Made by a program: the position numbers and the translations under genes
The notes under the pieces: generated by a model
What the model saw: only the letters and a program-made list of their open reading frames with translations
What the model was told of the DNA's origin: nothing
Database searches by the model: none
Virus record (IMG/VR): IMGVR_UViG_3300021400_000219
Coordinates: 121,970 to 139,573 of that record
Origin: a virus
Reading direction: 5' to 3' (one strand)
DNA length: 17,604 nucleotides
Part shown: piece by piece, positions 1,256-17,294 of the stretch
Position numbering within the stretch: position 1 is the stretch's first letter
Layout: every line of letters begins with the position of its first letter

Positions 1256-1292
1256 TAAAAATTAAACCCCCAGGGGTTTGGACCCCCTGGGG
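1256..1292 (-). terminator. intrinsic terminator
   Basis: Minus strand CCCCAGGGG-N7-CCCCTGGGG (1268-1292) followed by GTTTAATTTTT; ends the mini-ORF transcript. Confidence 0.7.
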
Positions 1293-1337
1293 TAGGACCA
1301 TTTTTTGGCAGGTTGGTGTCCCTTCCACCTACGCTTG

Positions 1338-1361
1338 TTAAATAAATCCAGTAGGATACAT
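1338..1361 (-). CDS. 7-codon mini-ORF MYPTGFI (candidate micro-peptide or leader peptide)
   Basis: ATGTATCCTACTGGATTTATTTAA preceded by GGAGGTGATACC; tandem paralog of 1423..1446. Confidence 0.3.
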   Translation of the reverse strand: MYPTGFI

Positions 1362-1422
1362 GGTATCACCTCCATAGTATTTGAAACCACTCTTTGGCGG
1401 GCTGGCTTCTACTCCCATTCTA

Positions 1423-1446
1423 TTACGTAAATCCAGAGTAATACAT
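1423..1446 (-). CDS. 7-codon mini-ORF MYYSGFT (candidate micro-peptide or leader peptide)
   Basis: ATGTATTACTCTGGATTTACGTAA preceded by GAGGTGATTTAGAA. Confidence 0.3.
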   Translation of the reverse strand: MYYSGFT

Positions 1447-1592
1447 TTCTAAATCACCTCAACAATAATTTTTAATTCTTTAGTGTTTCGCTAGACGAAA
1501 CCTGTGGGGAACCTACGCATGGCCCTCTCTCCCTTCCTAGTCTATTCCGCAGGGGAGGTTTGGCGCCTTGCCCTCTCCCTTGGAACAATTAT

Positions 1593-1621
1593 AGTATAAC
1601 AGATAGGGCCGTATTTGTCAA
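1593..1621 (-). promoter_or_regulatory. sigma-A/70-type promoter, class A upstream module
   Basis: Minus TTGACA-N17-TATACT (TGT-extended); drives the ~300-nt transcript carrying the two mini-ORFs. Confidence 0.7.
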
Positions 1622-2161: not shown

Positions 2162-2232
2162 GACCTTTTTTTGATTTTTTTGAAAATCTTTTTTCGGCCT
2201 TGGCCGTTGTCCCTCTCCCTTGGAACAATTAT

Positions 2233-4398: not shown

Positions 4399-4761
4399 TC
4401 AAATGTCCATGGCCTTGAAGTAGGTGACACGCTTGTCAACATACTTGTCAACCATGCCGTTGAGATACAGGGTGCGGAGCAGACCGCTCACCCGCTGGCT
4501 GGTAGCATCTGCCAGCTCAGGCACCCCAGCGCAAATCTCAGAGATGCGGAAACCCTTGTCCGAATCATCCCGCAGGAAATCCAGAATCTTGGAGCGAATG
4601 GCATCGTTTTCCACCTGCTTGGCGGAAGGCTTGCGCTCAGCCGTGGACTTCTTGGCAAAGCCCTCGGCAATCTTTTCCAGCTTCTCCCGCAGGGCAGTTT
4701 CCTCAGCAGGGACGAAAGTCAGGGCCATCTCAATAGCAGTCTTATTAGTCAGCTTAGTCAT
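4399..4761 (-). CDS. winged-helix-like small DNA-binding protein, paralog family 1 (subtype b)
   Basis: True start MTKLTNK at 4761; the track ORF extends through the promoter. The C-terminus GFRISEICAGVPELADATSQRVSGLLRTLYLNGMVDKYVDKRVTYFKAM is nearly identical to that of 9645..10019. Confidence 0.9.
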   Translation of the reverse strand: MTKLTNKTAIEMALTFVPAEETALREKLEKIAEGFAKKSTAERKPSAKQVENDAIRSKILDFLRDDSDKGFRISEICAGVPELADATSQRVSGLLRTLYLNGMVDKYVDKRVTYFKAMDI

Positions 4762-4859: not shown

Positions 4860-4960
4860 GAGGTTTTGAAAACTTTTTTCGGATTATTTTACACCGACCA
4901 TTAACTCTCAAGGAGTGGCTCTCTTTCGCTCGCCGTCCCCAACCCCTCTTGACATTTATT

Positions 4961-4988: not shown

Positions 4989-5037
4989 GATGGGATTTTG
5001 CACAAATTAGATTAACTTCTTTTGGTTAAAATGTCAA

Positions 5038-5066
5038 TAGACAAGCGCATGTTTTTGTGATAAAAT
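5038..5066 (+). promoter_or_regulatory. plus-strand promoter facing a GC-rich island
   Basis: TAGACA-N17-TAAAAT (TGA-extended) followed by TAGTGGGGGG. Its -35 overlaps a minus-sense TTGACA (GTCAATAGACA, 5033-5043). Confidence 0.5.
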
Positions 5067-5072
5067 TAGTGG

Positions 5073-5150
5073 GGGGTCTGCGCGCGGCGGCACCGGCCGT
5101 TATCGGGACGCGCGTGTGTGTGCGTGTGTCGCTTTAAAGAGCTAAAGCGC
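5073..5150 (+). ncRNA. candidate small RNA / GC-rich island, copy C
   Basis: Starts downstream of promoter 5038-5066. Sequence GGGGGTCTGCGCGCGGCGGCACCGGCCGTTATCGGG...GCTTTAAAGAGCTAAAGCG, homologous to 14045-14135 and 16951-17045. Contains a 22-nt alternating purine-pyrimidine run at 5108-5129. The 3' end is unknown. Confidence 0.3.
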
Positions 5151-5170
5151 CCGGGAGAGTTAGCGAGGGC

Positions 5171-5458
5171 TTACCCCTCGCTCGTATCTACTCCCAGAAT
5201 AATCAACAGACTACAGATAGTGCCCCACGCATGGACGCCCATGTCCTCAGGGATTGCATCCCACACATCAGGATACAGACGGCGCACACCAGAGAGAAGC
5301 ATCCCGCCCCAGTTACCACCGCAAGCGGTACACAAGTCAAGGAAATCTTTAAAACTCATTTTAGTTTTCTGCGCCATGCACGCATAGACAACAACTTCAT
5401 CGCCCCACTCGTTCCGCACAGTATCAAGGGCTTCCATGAAATCAGAATGAAGAATCAT
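5171..5458 (-). CDS. hypothetical protein (95 aa)
   Basis: ATG 5458 overlaps the upstream stop as ATGA. Begins MILHSDFMEALDTVRNEW...; the stop is in the loop of AGCGAGGG/CCCTCGCT. Confidence 0.85.
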   Translation of the reverse strand: MILHSDFMEALDTVRNEWGDEVVVYACMAQKTKMSFKDFLDLCTACGGNWGGMLLSGVRRLYPDVWDAIPEDMGVHAWGTICSLLIILGVDTSEG

Positions 5459-7439: not shown

Positions 7440-7805
7440 TTACTCCCCCTTCACCTGGAAGCGGCTGACCCGCTTCTCCACAACCTTCTCCACGGTTCCA
7501 GCTTCTACCAGCTGGCGCAGAAGGGCGGAAGCCTGCTGGCTGGAAGAGAGTTCCAGTTCGGCGGCTACTTCCTTCGCCTGCATAGGCTCGTGGTCAGTCA
7601 GCAGTTCAACGATGCGGGCCTTGATACCCTCGTTTTCAATCTGCTTCTTGGTGGGCTTGCGCTCGCCCTTGGACTTGGAAGCGTTCCGCTTCTCATAGCT
7701 GGCCTTGCAAGCAACCAGCTTTTCCATGGCTTCCTCGTTGAAGTCAGCGGGCAGGGAAGCAATAGCCATTTCCAGAGCCTTCACATAAGTCATCTTGTTA
7801 GTCAT
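7440..7805 (-). CDS. winged-helix-like small DNA-binding protein, paralog family 1 (subtype a)
   Basis: True start MTNKMTYVKAL at 7805. Collinear with 1714..2082 (EKLxACKASYxKRN..KGERKP.KKQ.ENEG..., ...ASALLRQ.VEAGTVEKV.EKR). The stop is in the GUAA loop of AAGGGGGA/TCCCCCTT. Confidence 0.9.
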   Translation of the reverse strand: MTNKMTYVKALEMAIASLPADFNEEAMEKLVACKASYEKRNASKSKGERKPTKKQIENEGIKARIVELLTDHEPMQAKEVAAELELSSSQQASALLRQLVEAGTVEKVVEKRVSRFQVKGE

Positions 7806-7908: not shown

Positions 7909-8018
7909 GAGTTTTTTTGAATTTCTCTTGATTTTTTTGGAGCCATTTTTTAGGTGGGCTACTTCCAACACCCGACTGTTGGCGGTTTTTTAGGTGCGCT
8001 CCCTCACCCGACATCATT

Positions 8019-9644: not shown

Positions 9645-10019
9645 TTAAACCCCCTCACCCATGGCCTTGAAATAAGTAATGCGCTTATCTACGTACTTAT
9701 CTACCATTCCGTTCAGGTAGAGCGTCCGCAGAAGTCCGCTCACCCTCTGGGAAGTCGCATCGTTCAGAGCGGGAACACCTGCGCAGATTTCAGAGATACG
9801 GAAACCTCTGTCCACATCTTCCCGCAGGAAATCCAGAATTTCCGCACGGACGGCGTCGTTCTCTGCCTGCTTTGCGCTAGGCTTGCGGGGAGCGGTGTTC
9901 TTCTTAATGGCCTGTTCCTTCATCTTCTCCAGCTTTTCCACAACATCCGTCATGTCAGCGGGAACGTAGGACAGAGCAACTTCCAGAGCCTTAACAGTAG
10001 TCATCTTATTGGTAGCCAT
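9645..10019 (-). CDS. winged-helix-like small DNA-binding protein, paralog family 1 (subtype b)
   Basis: True start MATNKMTTVKAL at 10019. The stop is in the palindrome GGGGGTT-T-AACCCCC. Confidence 0.9.
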   Translation of the reverse strand: MATNKMTTVKALEVALSYVPADMTDVVEKLEKMKEQAIKKNTAPRKPSAKQAENDAVRAEILDFLREDVDRGFRISEICAGVPALNDATSQRVSGLLRTLYLNGMVDKYVDKRITYFKAMGEGV

Positions 10020-10102: not shown

Positions 10103-10224
10103 GAGTTTTTTGCAGTTTTTCTGATTTTTTTTGTGAGAACCACGAATGGAAAAAACTCTCAAAAAATTATCGTTTGAAACTCTGTCCCTAGGGCTTTGGG
10201 GCCCCTTGCCCTTTGGACAAGTAT

Positions 10225-13167: not shown

Positions 13168-13192
13168 AAAAAAAGAGGCATTGCCCGGCCTC
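13166..13192 (-). terminator. intrinsic terminator
   Basis: Minus GAGGC-CGGGCAAT-GCCTC followed by TTTTTTT. Confidence 0.6.
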
Positions 13193-13463
13193 ATCGGGGG
13201 GAAGCTTGACGCCCTTCCCTGGCGGTGGTGTCCACTTTCGGGGACACGCCCGGCTCCGTTTGCTAGCCGCAGGAGCGTCGCGGCGCTGGGGTCGTTCCCT
13301 TGCCCCTTGGGGAACTTGATGGCCTCCATTTCTATCCCGCGGCCTTGGGGGCGGCCTAGCTACTTTGTGGGGAGTATCGCCCACGTTTCGCCGACGCGGC
13401 TGGGATTTTGGTGTCATCGCGCATCCCGTGCGCTCAAGAGGGACAAGTCAACCTCTTTTCTAT
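13166..13463 (-). ncRNA. candidate ~300-nt GC-rich structured non-coding RNA
   Basis: Runs from promoter 13470-13498 to the intrinsic terminator GAGGC-N8-GCCTC plus T7 (13168-13192). No SD-preceded ORF. Many local hairpins, e.g. GUGUCC-CCGAAAGU-GGACAC and GGGAAG..CUUCCC. Confidence 0.4.
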
Positions 13464-13469
13464 GGTCTT

Positions 13470-13498
13470 ATTATAGCACCCGCAAGGGGTTTTGTCAA
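13470..13498 (-). promoter_or_regulatory. sigma-A/70-type promoter driving the non-coding transcript
   Basis: Minus TTGACA-N17-TATAAT (TGC-extended); an A13-containing UP-like tract upstream (plus-strand T run 13509-13521). Confidence 0.7.
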
Positions 13499-13758: not shown

Positions 13759-13924
13759 CCCTTTTTTTCATTTTTTTTATTTTTTTTTGGTTCCCCATAC
13801 CCCTCCGGGGAACCACTGGCCGGCTATTTTTTACCTCCCGCCCTAGGGGGTGGCCCTTGGTACTTTGTGGGGTATCTTGCCCACGTTTCCCAGAGGGAGG
13901 GCCCGGAGGGTTTCCCCTCCTGAC
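13759..13924 (-). ncRNA. candidate short GC-rich RNA between tandem promoters
   Basis: Starts after promoter 13931-13959. Contains GGAGGG-GAAA-CCCTCC and GGTTCCCC..GGGGAACC hairpins and a ~50-nt block homologous to 13341-13392. Confidence 0.3.
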
Positions 13925-13930
13925 ATGATT

Positions 13931-13959: not shown

Positions 13960-14007
13960 TTGACAAATCTCACAAATCGGGATGTTCTATTTTGTGCATT
14001 TTTACTC

Positions 14008-14037
14008 TTGACAGCCGAGCCTATTTTGTGGTATAAT
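14008..14037 (+). promoter_or_regulatory. plus-strand promoter facing a GC-rich island
   Basis: TTGACA-N18-TATAAT (TGG-extended); the upstream CATTTTTACTCTTGACA is conserved with 16916-16944. Confidence 0.6.
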
Positions 14038-14044
14038 ATTTCTG

Positions 14045-14171
14045 TACTGCCTGCGCGCGCGGTCGCCGGCCGTTAGCGGGGGCTAACTGTGCCTGGGTGT
14101 GCGCCTTTATTGCAATAAAGCACTAAAGTGCACAAGGGCAAAAAACTACGAGGATTTTTTAATCCTCGTAG
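14045..14171 (+). ncRNA. candidate small RNA / GC-rich island, copy A
   Basis: CTGCGCGCGCGGTCGCCGGCCGTTAGCGGGGGCTAAC...GTGTGCGCCTTTATTGCAATAAAG... running into hairpin 14146-14171, which is shared with the convergent minus-strand gene. Confidence 0.3.
14139..14171 (-). terminator. intrinsic terminator containing the stop codon
   Basis: Minus CTACGAGGATT-AAAA-AATCCTCGTAG followed by TTTTTTG; the stop of 14159..14290 lies in the loop. Confidence 0.75.
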
Positions 14172-14609: not shown

Positions 14610-14756
14610 TTAGGGAAATTTATCTCTCCCTAAAAAACAATCCCGCATAAATTCCAACTGTTCCAGAGAAAAGCGGGCCGCAAATTGTGCGGGCGTCTCT
14701 TCAAAGAGATGGTATCCGTTGGCAACCATTTCCATTACAACTTCCAGCTTTTTCAT
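14610..14756 (-). CDS. hypothetical micro-protein (48 aa)
   Basis: True start MKKLEVVMEMVANGY at 14756 after AAAGGAGGAAC. Confidence 0.65.
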   Translation of the reverse strand: MKKLEVVMEMVANGYHLFEETPAQFAARFSLEQLEFMRDCFLGRDKFP

Positions 14757-14786: not shown

Positions 14787-14814
14787 ATTATACCATACTT
14801 TTGGCAAATGTCAA
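14787..14814 (-). promoter_or_regulatory. sigma-A/70-type promoter (gene-proximal tandem)
   Basis: Minus TTGACA-N16-TATAAT (TGG-extended). Confidence 0.7.
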
Positions 14815-14923
14815 GACCTTTTTTCAATTTTCTTTTGGTCTTTGCGGGTCCGACCCCCGCACCCTCTGAAGGGCTGTTGTCGGCTTGGAGGTCCTTCCTA
14901 CTGGGACCCCGTCCTTGATTATT

Positions 14924-14951
14924 ATTATAGCAGATAATAGCCAAAAGTCAA
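14924..14951 (-). promoter_or_regulatory. sigma-A/70-type promoter, class B (distal tandem)
   Basis: Minus TTGACT-N16-TATAAT (TGC-extended); ATTACA 14951-14956 and GGTTACAAT at 14961-14969 and 14983-14991. Confidence 0.6.
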
Positions 14952-15022
14952 TTACAAAATGGTTACAATTTTATTTCAGAATGGTTACAATTTGCGCCCG
15001 GGCAAATGGGAAAAAGAGGGAA

Positions 15023-15487
15023 TTACTTCCCTCTCGCCCATGTCAGAACGTCCATAATCATTTCAGGATTGAAGGCCCAACCTTCCATTTCTTCCCACTC
15101 AATCACATTGTTTTCTTCATCGTCAAACAGAATCCCATTTTTCACGGTGGGCACTGTGCTTTTGGGCGTCCCATAGGGAACAATGTTGATTTCATCAAAG
15201 TGAACGCTTGCAAGGTGTTTCTTGAGCCAATTCTTTTTGGCTTCAATAACCTTTTCGTCAAATTCCTTGTTGCTATTCTTAGCTAACCAACTAACTACCC
15301 CGATTGTCCATCCCTTTTTCTGAAGGTTATTCAACCGACGGGCAAGGGCGTTCATGTTTACCAGAGGCTTAGCAACTTCATAGGGGAAGGGATTGTTTTC
15401 CAGTAGATAACCCAGCCAGTTTTCTACGCCGTAGAAGTTGGCGATTGTTCCATCCATGTCAAAGTAGATTGCCCGATTGATTTTCAT
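15023..15487 (-). CDS. HAD-superfamily hydrolase, 5'(3')-deoxyribonucleotidase (NT5C)-like, paralog 2
   Basis: 154-aa ORF; AAAGGAG SD; contains YFDMDGTIA. The stop is in the GUAA loop of AGAGGGAA/TTCCCTCT (15015-15034). Confidence 0.9.
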   Translation of the reverse strand: MKINRAIYFDMDGTIANFYGVENWLGYLLENNPFPYEVAKPLVNMNALARRLNNLQKKGWTIGVVSWLAKNSNKEFDEKVIEAKKNWLKKHLASVHFDEINIVPYGTPKSTVPTVKNGILFDDEENNVIEWEEMEGWAFNPEMIMDVLTWARGK

Positions 15488-15619: not shown

Positions 15620-15632
15620 AAAGGGGGAATTA

Positions 15633-15651
15633 TTTTTTTTTTTTTTTTTTT
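15633..15651. repeat. homopolymer T19 (A19 on the gene strand)
   Basis: Counted directly from the sequence. Confidence 0.95.
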
Positions 15652-16868: not shown

Positions 16869-16915
16869 TTGGTAAATTGCACAAAAAAGTTTTTGATTTT
16901 TGGGCATTTTTACTC

Positions 16916-16944
16916 TTGACATTCGCTGTAAATTGTGGTAAAAT
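16916..16944 (+). promoter_or_regulatory. plus-strand promoter facing a GC-rich island
   Basis: TTGACA-N17-TAAAAT (TGG-extended) followed by AAAATGGGGAG. Confidence 0.6.
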
Positions 16945-16950
16945 AAAATG

Positions 16951-17076
16951 GGGAGCTGTTGTTCGCGCGCGCCGAAGGCCGTTAGCGGCCGCTAACCGGG
17001 TGTGCGTGTGCGCACCTTTATAGCTTTAATGGGTTAAAGTAACCGGGTAAAAAAGAGAAGGACTTTTCAGTCCTTC
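16951..17076 (+). ncRNA. candidate small RNA / GC-rich island, copy B
   Basis: GGGGAGCTGTTGTTCGCGCGCGCCGAAGGCCGTTAGCGGCCGCTAACCGGGTGTGCGTGTGCGCACCTTTATAGC... Includes the 16-bp palindrome GTTAGCGGCCGCTAAC (16981-16996) and a 16-nt alternating purine-pyrimidine run (17000-17015). Confidence 0.3.
17046..17076 (-). terminator. intrinsic terminator containing the stop codon
   Basis: Minus GAAGGACT-GAAA-AGTCCTTC followed by TCTTTTTTACC; the stop codon (17067-17069) spans the loop and the first base of the 3' arm. Confidence 0.75.
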
Positions 17077-17294
17077 ATCCCCATTTCTACGAAAACTTCA
17101 AAGCCTTCAAAGTAGTAAGTCCGCCATTCGCCTTCAAATTCAATTTCTTCCCGCTCCGCCATTTCAGACAGAACTACTTCAACTTCCTGCAAGGCCCGCC
17201 ATTCTGCAGCATCACCATCAAACCGAACTGCTACAACACCATCTTCAAACTCAACCTCAAAAGCTTCCAGCATTTCAAGAATCATTTCTAACAT
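17067..17294 (-). CDS. small extremely acidic protein (75 aa)
   Basis: ORF track; AGAAAGGAAA SD. 23 D/E versus 5 K/R by count. Confidence 0.85.
   Translation of the reverse strand: MLEMILEMLEAFEVEFEDGVVAVRFDGDAAEWRALQEVEVVLSEMAEREEIEFEGEWRTYYFEGFEVFVEMGMKD

Follow-up and report, generated by a model that had tools for sequence, protein, structure and literature searches.

The closest analogue of the locus analyzed here appears to be the promoter-early stem-loop (PeSL) cassette of T4-type phages (Arbiol et al. 2010, PMC2839356; Comeau et al. 2014, PMC4122927). There, as in our phage, strong sigma-70-like early promoters are repeated between small non-essential genes in a plastic region of the genome, and cargo is inserted, deleted, or replaced from one close relative to the next at breakpoints that fall within these promoter modules. 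However, the present locus belongs to another, uncultivated rumen phage lineage. Its repeated unit is marked by the boundary GCCCGGGCG together with palindromes and operator-like repeats and does not always end in a terminator, and many modules carry a non-coding RNA in place of an open reading frame (ORF), an arrangement that is not reported in the portion of PMC2839356 considered. By analogy, the architecture would work like that of the PeSLs, with a different boundary module and with RNA as a frequent cargo.

Small stable RNAs and tRNAs are found in the early or tRNA regions of large lytic phages, such as the species 1 and 2 RNAs of T4 and the tRNA region of T5. Here too, short non-coding RNAs are predicted to arise from strong phage promoters among small early genes, and relatives of this phage carry tRNA-Lys or tRNA-Cys in equivalent slots. 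The two RNA families described below, R3 and R1, are unlike tRNAs (negative in ARAGORN and Rfam) and form families of their own. The antitermination RNAs nut of lambda and put of HK022 lie just 3' of early promoters and combine one or two hairpins with a linear motif, with terminators downstream. R3 is likewise promoter-adjacent, with one or two hairpins, a linear motif, and terminators downstream, but it shows no sequence similarity to nut or put, an N-like factor was looked for among the proteins without success, and equivalent positions are taken up by several RNA families unrelated to one another. Integron cassettes resemble the modules in forming arrays of short one-gene units with a repeated, palindrome-containing motif between them. 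They are promoterless and bounded by attC, whereas each unit here has its own strong promoter, the breakpoints lie in the promoters, and no integrase-like ORF is present among the genes of the window (the whole 17,604-nt stretch of DNA analyzed). STAB-SD (Agaisse & Lereclus 1996) and the polypurine stabilizer (Hue et al. 1995) protect Gram-positive mRNAs at the 5' end, as cited in PMC3997798. Like R3, they place a Shine-Dalgarno (SD)-like purine run, a stem-loop, or both at the very start of the transcript, with no start codon after it. In R3, by contrast, the purine run is predicted to be paired, further parts are conserved, and one form of the element is a stand-alone gene with a terminator.

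The early regions of phages tend to be interpreted as series of small proteins of unknown function. In this lineage, about one-fifth of consecutive strong-promoter pairs enclose no ORF. At least two intervals of the window carry covariation-supported RNAs not in Rfam, one of them pseudoknotted and both found as stand-alone genes elsewhere. They offer specific candidates for small RNAs that the phage would make as soon as infection begins, and they show that the cargo exchanged in promoter-bounded modules can be RNA as well as protein-coding genes.

Promoter-led modules in the early region of a rumen phage

The window is identical to a 174-kb contig from a sheep-rumen metagenome, listed under ERZ28612966 and SAMN02144230, that carries phage-like genes. 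It has no match among deposited phages by megablast and contains no T4-like core genes. Judged by its promoters and SD sequences, the host is probably of the Firmicutes type. Nearly all genes lie on the minus strand, in about 27 promoter-led modules, and each promoter is followed by one to three short ORFs with strong SD sequences. Among the encoded proteins are a deoxyribonucleotidase of the NT5C type, an exonuclease-like PHROG, and four winged-helix-like (WH) proteins that are paralogues of one another. A promoter scan detected 87 promoter-like sites in the window against 32.4 ± 6.6 in shuffled sequences, and a stricter threshold left 36 minus-strand and 5 plus-strand promoters over the 17.6 kb. 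We retrieved more than 100 related early-region loci; all those scanned have this dense layout, and relatives carry 19-36 strong promoters per 15-20 kb.

The modules are separated by the boundary motif GCCCGGGCG, often beside a GTTAGCnnnnGCTAAC palindrome, and CCCGGG[CT] occurs 21 times on the minus strand of the window, between modules. An A-rich tract forms the upstream side of every promoter in the window, and operator-like repeats, which also separate the modules, stand directly 5' of this tract and the -35 box. A hairpin followed by a T-run ends some modules (15034-15010, 7452-7431, and 4393-4376); the RNA-cargo intervals and several other modules lack such an end.

About seven GTTAGCnnnnGCTAAC palindromes cluster at 12930-12735 (minus strand). 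They resemble arrayed binding sites and may mark an origin, a partition site, or a site for a regulator. The operator-like repeats 5' of the -35 boxes fall into four classes: TGGAA..TTCCA; TTGTAACCA twice; TTGTGCAAA.TTGCACAA; and TTGACGAA/TTCGTCA. Homopolymer A/T runs of ~20-27 nt at 17474-17500 and 15630-15650 adjoin divergent promoters, and an AT-rich (15-30% G+C), gene-poor segment at ~430-940 has stacked promoters at 922-894 and 851-823, 42 nt apart. Plus-strand divergent promoters (10-12 of 12) at three sites (14000-14170, 16908-17080, and 5030-5205) would drive homologous GC-rich sequences of ~120 nt (GCGCGCGC..CCGGCCGTTAGCGnnnGCTAAC..GTGCGTGTGCG..CCTTTAT), which run into the terminator of the convergent gene and may represent a further RNA family on the opposite strand.

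Stacked promoters at six genes

A sequence-only reading of this DNA had placed a second full promoter 100-170 bp upstream of the gene-proximal one at six genes. Two minus-strand sigma-70 promoters are indeed present at all six sites, with gaps of 71-172 nt between the distal -10 and proximal -35 boxes (109, 172, 122, 110, 101, and 71 nt from the 14815 site to the 2162 site in descending position). The proximal promoters (14814-14787, 13758-13730, 10102-10074, 7908-7880, 4859-4831, and 2161-2133) score 11-12 of 12 and have TG-extended -10 boxes. Five distal promoters (14951-14924, 10253-10225, 8047-8019, 4988-4961, and 2261-2233) score 10-11 of 12, and the sixth (13959-13931, TAGACT-17-TGgTATTAT) is weaker, at 9 of 12 with an extended -10 box. 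Since the scan counts far exceed those of shuffles and the minus strand is in strong excess, the pairs are not attributable to chance. None of the six gaps contains an SD-led ORF of at least 20 codons, and each interval ends in an A-rich tract, as that reading had described.

The hairpins named at the intervals also exist, but GC-rich hairpins by themselves are no evidence of structure. Folding z-scores against dinucleotide shuffles range from -0.06 to -3.1 across the six intervals and are unremarkable in five of the six, so that we rejected energy as evidence. The description of the intervals as structured thus gains nothing from folding energy, while comparative evidence upholds it at three sites.

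The six sites are more than one kind of thing, and each of the roles suggested for them applies to a different subset or to none. Small-RNA cargo is well supported at 14815-14923 and 13759-13930 because both have stand-alone-gene relatives and base-pair covariation; relatives with their own promoter and intrinsic terminator occur for the former in locus L035 and for the latter in loci L111 and L029. It is plausible at 10103-10224 and 4860-4960, since these are conserved families. Of the suggested roles it thus has the best support at most sites, but it does not extend to all six. A remnant of a deleted or rearranged cassette fits 2162-2232 and may fit 7909-8018, and is disfavored for 14815-14923. 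Attenuation or riboregulation of the distal transcript found no support: the six intervals contain no U-tract terminator, and predicted SD accessibility is unchanged. When the intervals were compared among relatives, those carrying R3 and R1 and those at 10103-10224 and 4860-4960 recurred, but 7909-8018 was strain-specific.

Four of the six stacked sites lie upstream of the WH paralogues (~122 aa; 1714-2082, 4399-4761, 7440-7805, and 9645-10019, minus strand). By hand count, stacked promoters precede 4/4 WH genes against 2/23 other modules (Fisher p ~8.5e-4). The WH homologues of distant relatives (31-47% identity) also lie behind two or three stacked promoters with ORF-less intervals. Stacked promoters likewise accompany the WH homologues in L025-L030. 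A profile search of the paralogues against the PDB gave only weak MarR-like matches (E ~0.08). Given the four classes of operator-like repeats, each WH paralogue could regulate one promoter class.

Organization of the interval at 14815-14951

All features of this interval, the target of our analysis, lie on the minus strand. Upstream, the module of the NT5C-like (deoxyribonucleotidase) gene (15487-15023) ends in a terminator-like hairpin and T-run (AGAGGGAAgtaaTTCCCTCT TTTTT, 15010-15034). The boundary motif GCCCGGGCG (14995-15003) and two direct repeats of AATTGTAACCATT (14958-14992) follow. The repeats lie just 5' of the distal -35 box and may serve as operators; the same class (family D18) is found at promoters 2261, 2657, and 7002. 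The distal promoter (14924-14951, TTGACT-16 nt-TGcTATAAT, 11 of 12) is followed by R3, a small structured RNA of ~83 nt (14836-14918) defined as a covariance-model family. R3 consists of a 5' hairpin whose 5' arm is an SD-like purine run (14910-14888), the invariant motif CCAAGCCG (14888-14881), hairpin 2 (14874-14861), and a 3' GC hairpin (14860-14844). The A-rich tract at 14815-14843 also forms the UP-like element of the proximal promoter (14787-14814, TTGACA-16 nt-TGgTATAAT, 12 of 12), downstream of which lies a 48-aa gene with a strong SD (AAAGGAGG, 14610-14756).

The core of the interval has 65% G+C, compared with ~42% for the window, and its folding z-score against dinucleotide shuffles was -1.1, -0.28, and -0.23 in three trimmings. 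The interval is identical in five contigs of one strain, and no repeat of it was found within the window. Since it lacks a U-tract, it contains no intrinsic terminator. The SD of the 48-aa gene has nearly the same predicted unpaired probability (0.82 against 0.84) whether the transcript is long or short; a riboregulator that occludes the ribosome-binding site was discarded, since accessibility is the same in both, and the unchanged accessibility together with the missing terminator leaves cis-riboregulation unsupported. Nor does the interval look like the leader of an attenuator or riboswitch, since the element is not tied to the downstream gene: in L077 and L086, the homologue of the 48-aa gene stands behind one promoter only, and R3 is missing.

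We consider, at a probability of roughly 0.6, that 14815-14951 is an expression module whose cargo is the small structured RNA R3, and that the proximal promoter and the 48-aa gene form the next module. If the interval is an RNA module, the tandem promoter pair becomes two adjacent cassettes, and tandem promoters in such genomes may be read in the same way. The distal promoter would transcribe R3 from about its first base. In the predicted RNA, the 5' hairpin sequesters the SD-like purine run and is followed by the single-stranded invariant CCAAGCCG(A/U)nAA and by one or two 3' GC hairpins. Since the copy in the window has no terminator, RNA polymerase would continue past the A-rich tract and the proximal promoter and transcribe the 48-aa gene as well. 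A cut within that tract may then set free a small RNA with a hairpin at each end, which would act alone, probably by binding a protein or an RNA through its invariant single-stranded motif. Such modules are exchanged among related phages when recombination takes place at their conserved promoters and A-tracts.

SD-led mini-ORFs elsewhere in the phage group (two 7-codon ORFs at ~1450-1340 and the F10 cluster described below) raise the question of whether the interval instead encodes a very small peptide. This is scarcely credible for 14923-14815, where no start codon follows either SD-like run; the sole frame begins with GTG without spacing and is not kept in L090 or L056.

Homologues, covariation, and contexts of R3

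The homologues of R3 were reached via loci anchored on closer NT5C homologues and then by the covariance model. The first, L111:4334-4415, has 86% identity with the window over 77 nt, including a 3' block with one substitution in ~45 nt; the NT5C genes of the two loci are 79% identical, and the flanks of R3 do not align. The covariance model found four more copies after L111. The window scores 102 bits, and the other five members have E values of 1e-10 to 1e-29. Altogether, six distinct versions are represented by the window together with L117, L111/L112, L090, L056, L037, and L035. Three further NT5C-anchored loci (L118, L121, and L123) added no members, and R3 is absent from ~100 of ~105 early-region loci. 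Weak matches of the model in L099, L041, and L087 lie inside coding sequence, and in L038 and L027 the match falls across a terminator or promoter; all five were discarded as false positives.

The alignment comprises seven rows, three of them near-identical to others, and was fitted to the model. It is paired in 89% of cells, with 14 cells in six pairs showing compensatory changes; none of 500 shuffles matched the covariation score, and slid controls never exceeded 56% pairing. Pairing in the 3' hairpin is complete (100%) in each of its four sequence forms (GCGGG/CCCGC, GCGGU/ACCGC, GUGGU/ACCAC, and GUGGC/GCCAC). Common to all seven rows are an SD-like purine arm paired with a CUCC arm, the invariant CCAAGCCG, and the 3' hairpin, and the window copy shows the promoter-proximal purine/CUCC hairpin, CCAAGCCG, the 3' GC hairpin, and the A-run. 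Hairpin 2 is present only in the window and L111. Since the family is small and the alignment was fitted to the model, this evidence for structure is good, not decisive.

Four copies of R3 lie between stacked promoters: that of the window and those at L090 5848-5921, L056 13444-13517, and L037 14846-14919, each of the latter three followed by the next promoter. In L035 (15979-16052), R3 is followed by a 16-bp hairpin and U-run, a CCGGGC boundary-like motif, and then the next promoter; since it has its own hairpin with a U-run and a boundary-like motif, this copy is a stand-alone RNA cassette. In L111, R3 is a 5'UTR: it runs directly into the SD and start codon (ATG) of a 150-aa gene, and a second promoter is missing. 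The five genes downstream of R3 in the window, L090, L056, L037, and L111 are mutually unrelated.

The position of R3, always at the 5' end of the transcript right after a strong promoter, may also indicate a cis-acting leader, either a 5' stabilizer or insulator that blocks 5' exonuclease or an antitermination signal of the nut/put type. The 5'UTR copy in L111 and the unterminated copy in the window agree with such a leader. At the 5' end of all these intervals lies an SD-like purine run that pairs with an arm of the CUCC type, and the linear motif plus hairpin resembles boxA plus boxB. The terminator directly 3' of R3 in L035 would suit a gated antitermination switch. Moreover, 5' stabilizers of this kind are documented, as far as the references given in PMC3997798 indicate. 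However, any stable hairpin would do as a stabilizer, yet CCAAGCCG is invariant across divergent phages, and the SD of the downstream gene is predicted to be as accessible in the long transcript as in the short one. Many unrelated RNA families occupy such slots within one phage (R1, R3, the families at 4960 and 10224, and the interval clusters F8 and F11 catalogued from relatives), which would not be expected of a single antitermination system. No protein resembling N or Q was identified, and the sister family R1 is a terminated stand-alone gene. A cis-acting role is thus possible, though unlikely.

The same contexts bear on whether the conserved sequence works as DNA, for example as a regulator binding site for the proximal promoter. 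The element is located at ~-36 to -120 of that promoter, operator-like repeats are common in the region, and the 4860-4960 family is conserved without covariation up to the proximal -35 box. On the other hand, the L111 copy has no downstream promoter, and that of L035 is followed by a terminator. The stems of R3 covary while the loops drift, and its G-U pairs exist on one strand only, which points to a sense-strand RNA rather than DNA. Given these contexts and the strand-specific pairs, we regard a DNA-level site as very improbable.

R3 and R1 match nothing in Rfam 15, nor any GTDB genome by exact pattern (0 matches). Rfam 15 gave no match in the window at gathering thresholds, and at E values up to 5 none overlapped the target; in eight relatives, only tRNAs were matched. 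Neither ARAGORN nor Rfam RF00005 detected a tRNA in the window. Exact patterns of the R1 and R3 cores had 0 matches in IMG/VR, and the exact-pattern scan of JGI metagenomes returned only the same strain with one substitution. Searches of the intervals against ~1.5 Mb of IMG/VR relatives (blastn, nhmmer, and tblastx) recovered the 4960 family alone and no R3 homologue.

R1, a pseudoknotted RNA at 13759-13930

The interval 13759-13930, downstream of the weaker distal promoter, contains R1, a pseudoknotted RNA of ~103 nt (13789-13891, minus strand) supported by covariation. Homologues are found in L029, L110 (two copies), and L111. In the alignment, 92.6% of cells are paired, and two of the 10 compensatory pairs lie in the CCCC/GGGG pseudoknot. 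Since the last helix and a U-run form a terminator in L111 and L029, R1 is a stand-alone gene in these loci. A paralogous core lies in the window at 13392-13293.

This second core falls within what appears to be a non-coding RNA gene of ~290 nt at 13172-13498 (minus strand), with a 12/12 promoter at 13498-13470 and a terminator at 13192-13175. In L110, an RNA of this type directly follows the first R1 copy, without the 52-aa gene between them.

The other four intervals

The conserved non-coding interval at 10103-10224 (minus strand) lies 5' of a WH gene. In a comparison of L110, L111/L112, and L114/L115, it is 89-95% identical in four variants, compared with 79% for the stretch that includes the WH gene. 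Its 5' hairpin (GUCC..GGGC-AAGGGGCCCCAAA-GCCC..GGAC) shows a compensatory change from GGGC/GCCC to GGGG/CCCC. An antisense ORF of 26 codons across the interval was rejected: its frame is kept, but 8 of 26 residues change over ~10 nucleotide differences, and no promoter was seen.

The interval at 4860-4960 (minus strand) belongs to a conserved non-coding family of four members with a near-invariant 3' half. It shows no covariation because its columns do not vary. The downstream genes differ, and the L001 copy precedes an exonuclease-like gene instead of a WH gene. A mini-ORF (MVGVK) in this family was set aside in view of its weak SD and a non-synonymous change.

The interval at 7909-8018 (minus strand) is replaced by unrelated sequence in close strains and has no homologue in ~1.8 Mb of relatives. 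The two tandem units of ~37 nt proposed there did not hold up, since their common parts are only 8-nt and 11-nt stem arms. ToxI-like antitoxins consist of tandem near-identical repeats of ~34-45 nt beside a ToxN-family gene. The interval was considered as such a type III antitoxin RNA and discarded, as its units share only these arms and its neighbor is a WH paralogue.

The interval at 2162-2232 (minus strand) is a recombination junction. A 28-nt segment of -10 box and leader (TATACTATAATTGTTCCAAGGGAGAGGG) is duplicated at 1598-1571, and the duplicated 22-nt leader is followed by 16 nt and then by the A-tract of the WH promoter. In L012 and L015, which lack WH gene 2082, the distal promoter and 22-nt leader are joined directly to the long non-coding region of the 1593 type; this arrangement identifies 2162-2232 as a junction at the 28-nt duplication.

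Nearby, 1265-1621 (minus strand) consists of a promoter and ~330 nt of non-coding sequence with two SD-led mini-ORFs of seven codons (MYYSGFT* and MYPTGFI*), each preceding a similar sequence, and ends in a strong terminator (1292-1268). This stretch is 92-95% conserved in other strains and may be a regulator of the leader-peptide type or an RNA gene.

Exchange of cargo between related phages

Strains with 84-100% identity in shared segments are mosaics relative to the window, and in L009-L018 the breakpoints lie at promoters or leaders. Close strains keep the promoters and swap the cargo between them. The window/L009, L013, and L012 all retain the two promoters that precede WH gene 7805, with unrelated sequence between these promoters in each. 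Before WH gene 4761, L015 has a different interval, and its proximal leader contains an insert of 72 nt. Of the 2231 consecutive promoter pairs in 96 sequences, 419 frame an interval of 40-320 nt that contains no ORF. These intervals comprise recurring families and 243 singletons, and as a class they fold somewhat better than shuffles (mean z = -0.86, with 19% below -2).

Such turnover suggests another origin for the target, namely that its module lost a gene by promoter-mediated recombination, leaving stacked promoters around a functionless scar. The junction at 2162-2232 is a scar of this kind, 7909-8018 is replaced in close strains, and the 243 singletons of the 419 ORF-less intervals could be read likewise. 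The 5' end of the target resembles an ordinary cassette leader (AATAATCAAGGA-GGGG; compare 4253), matching the leader and degenerate SD of the module at 4282-4230, so that part of R3 could be an inherited leader, and its folding energy is that of shuffles (z ~0). However, distant phages retain homologues of the target in differing contexts, and these show compensatory changes and an invariant motif, which would not be seen in a neutral scar; no remnant of a coding sequence is detectable in the interval by tblastx. A functionless scar is therefore distinctly unlikely at this site, and R3 as the cargo of an expression module remains our preferred reading.

In L042, L026, and L028, tRNA-Cys or tRNA-Lys is the sole cargo between promoters, and the early-region tRNAs of the relatives may counter anticodon nucleases. 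It is conceivable, though doubtful, that the ORF-less slots form an exchangeable arsenal of early RNAs that act as decoys or countermeasures to RNA-targeting or RNA-guided defenses of the host. This arsenal would include R3, the R1 pseudoknot, the 4960 and 10224 families, and the tRNA-Lys(UUU) and tRNA-Cys of relatives, and promoter-mediated recombination would swap these RNAs between phages as it does protein anti-defense genes. If so, R3 and R1 would represent new classes of phage anti-defense or host-takeover RNA.

The slots with a sole tRNA are L042:2115-2264, L026:4812-5014, and L028:6253-6560. Early-region tRNA genes, mostly tRNA-Lys(UUU), also occur in L029, L030, L041, L047, L051, and L068. 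In the cluster F10 (L001:6528-6713 and ~9 homologous intervals), a strong SD is followed by a mini-ORF, M(M)R[FVL]R, and then by a GCGC hairpin; this mini-ORF resembles ribosome-stalling leader peptides with an R/K-x-R/K motif.
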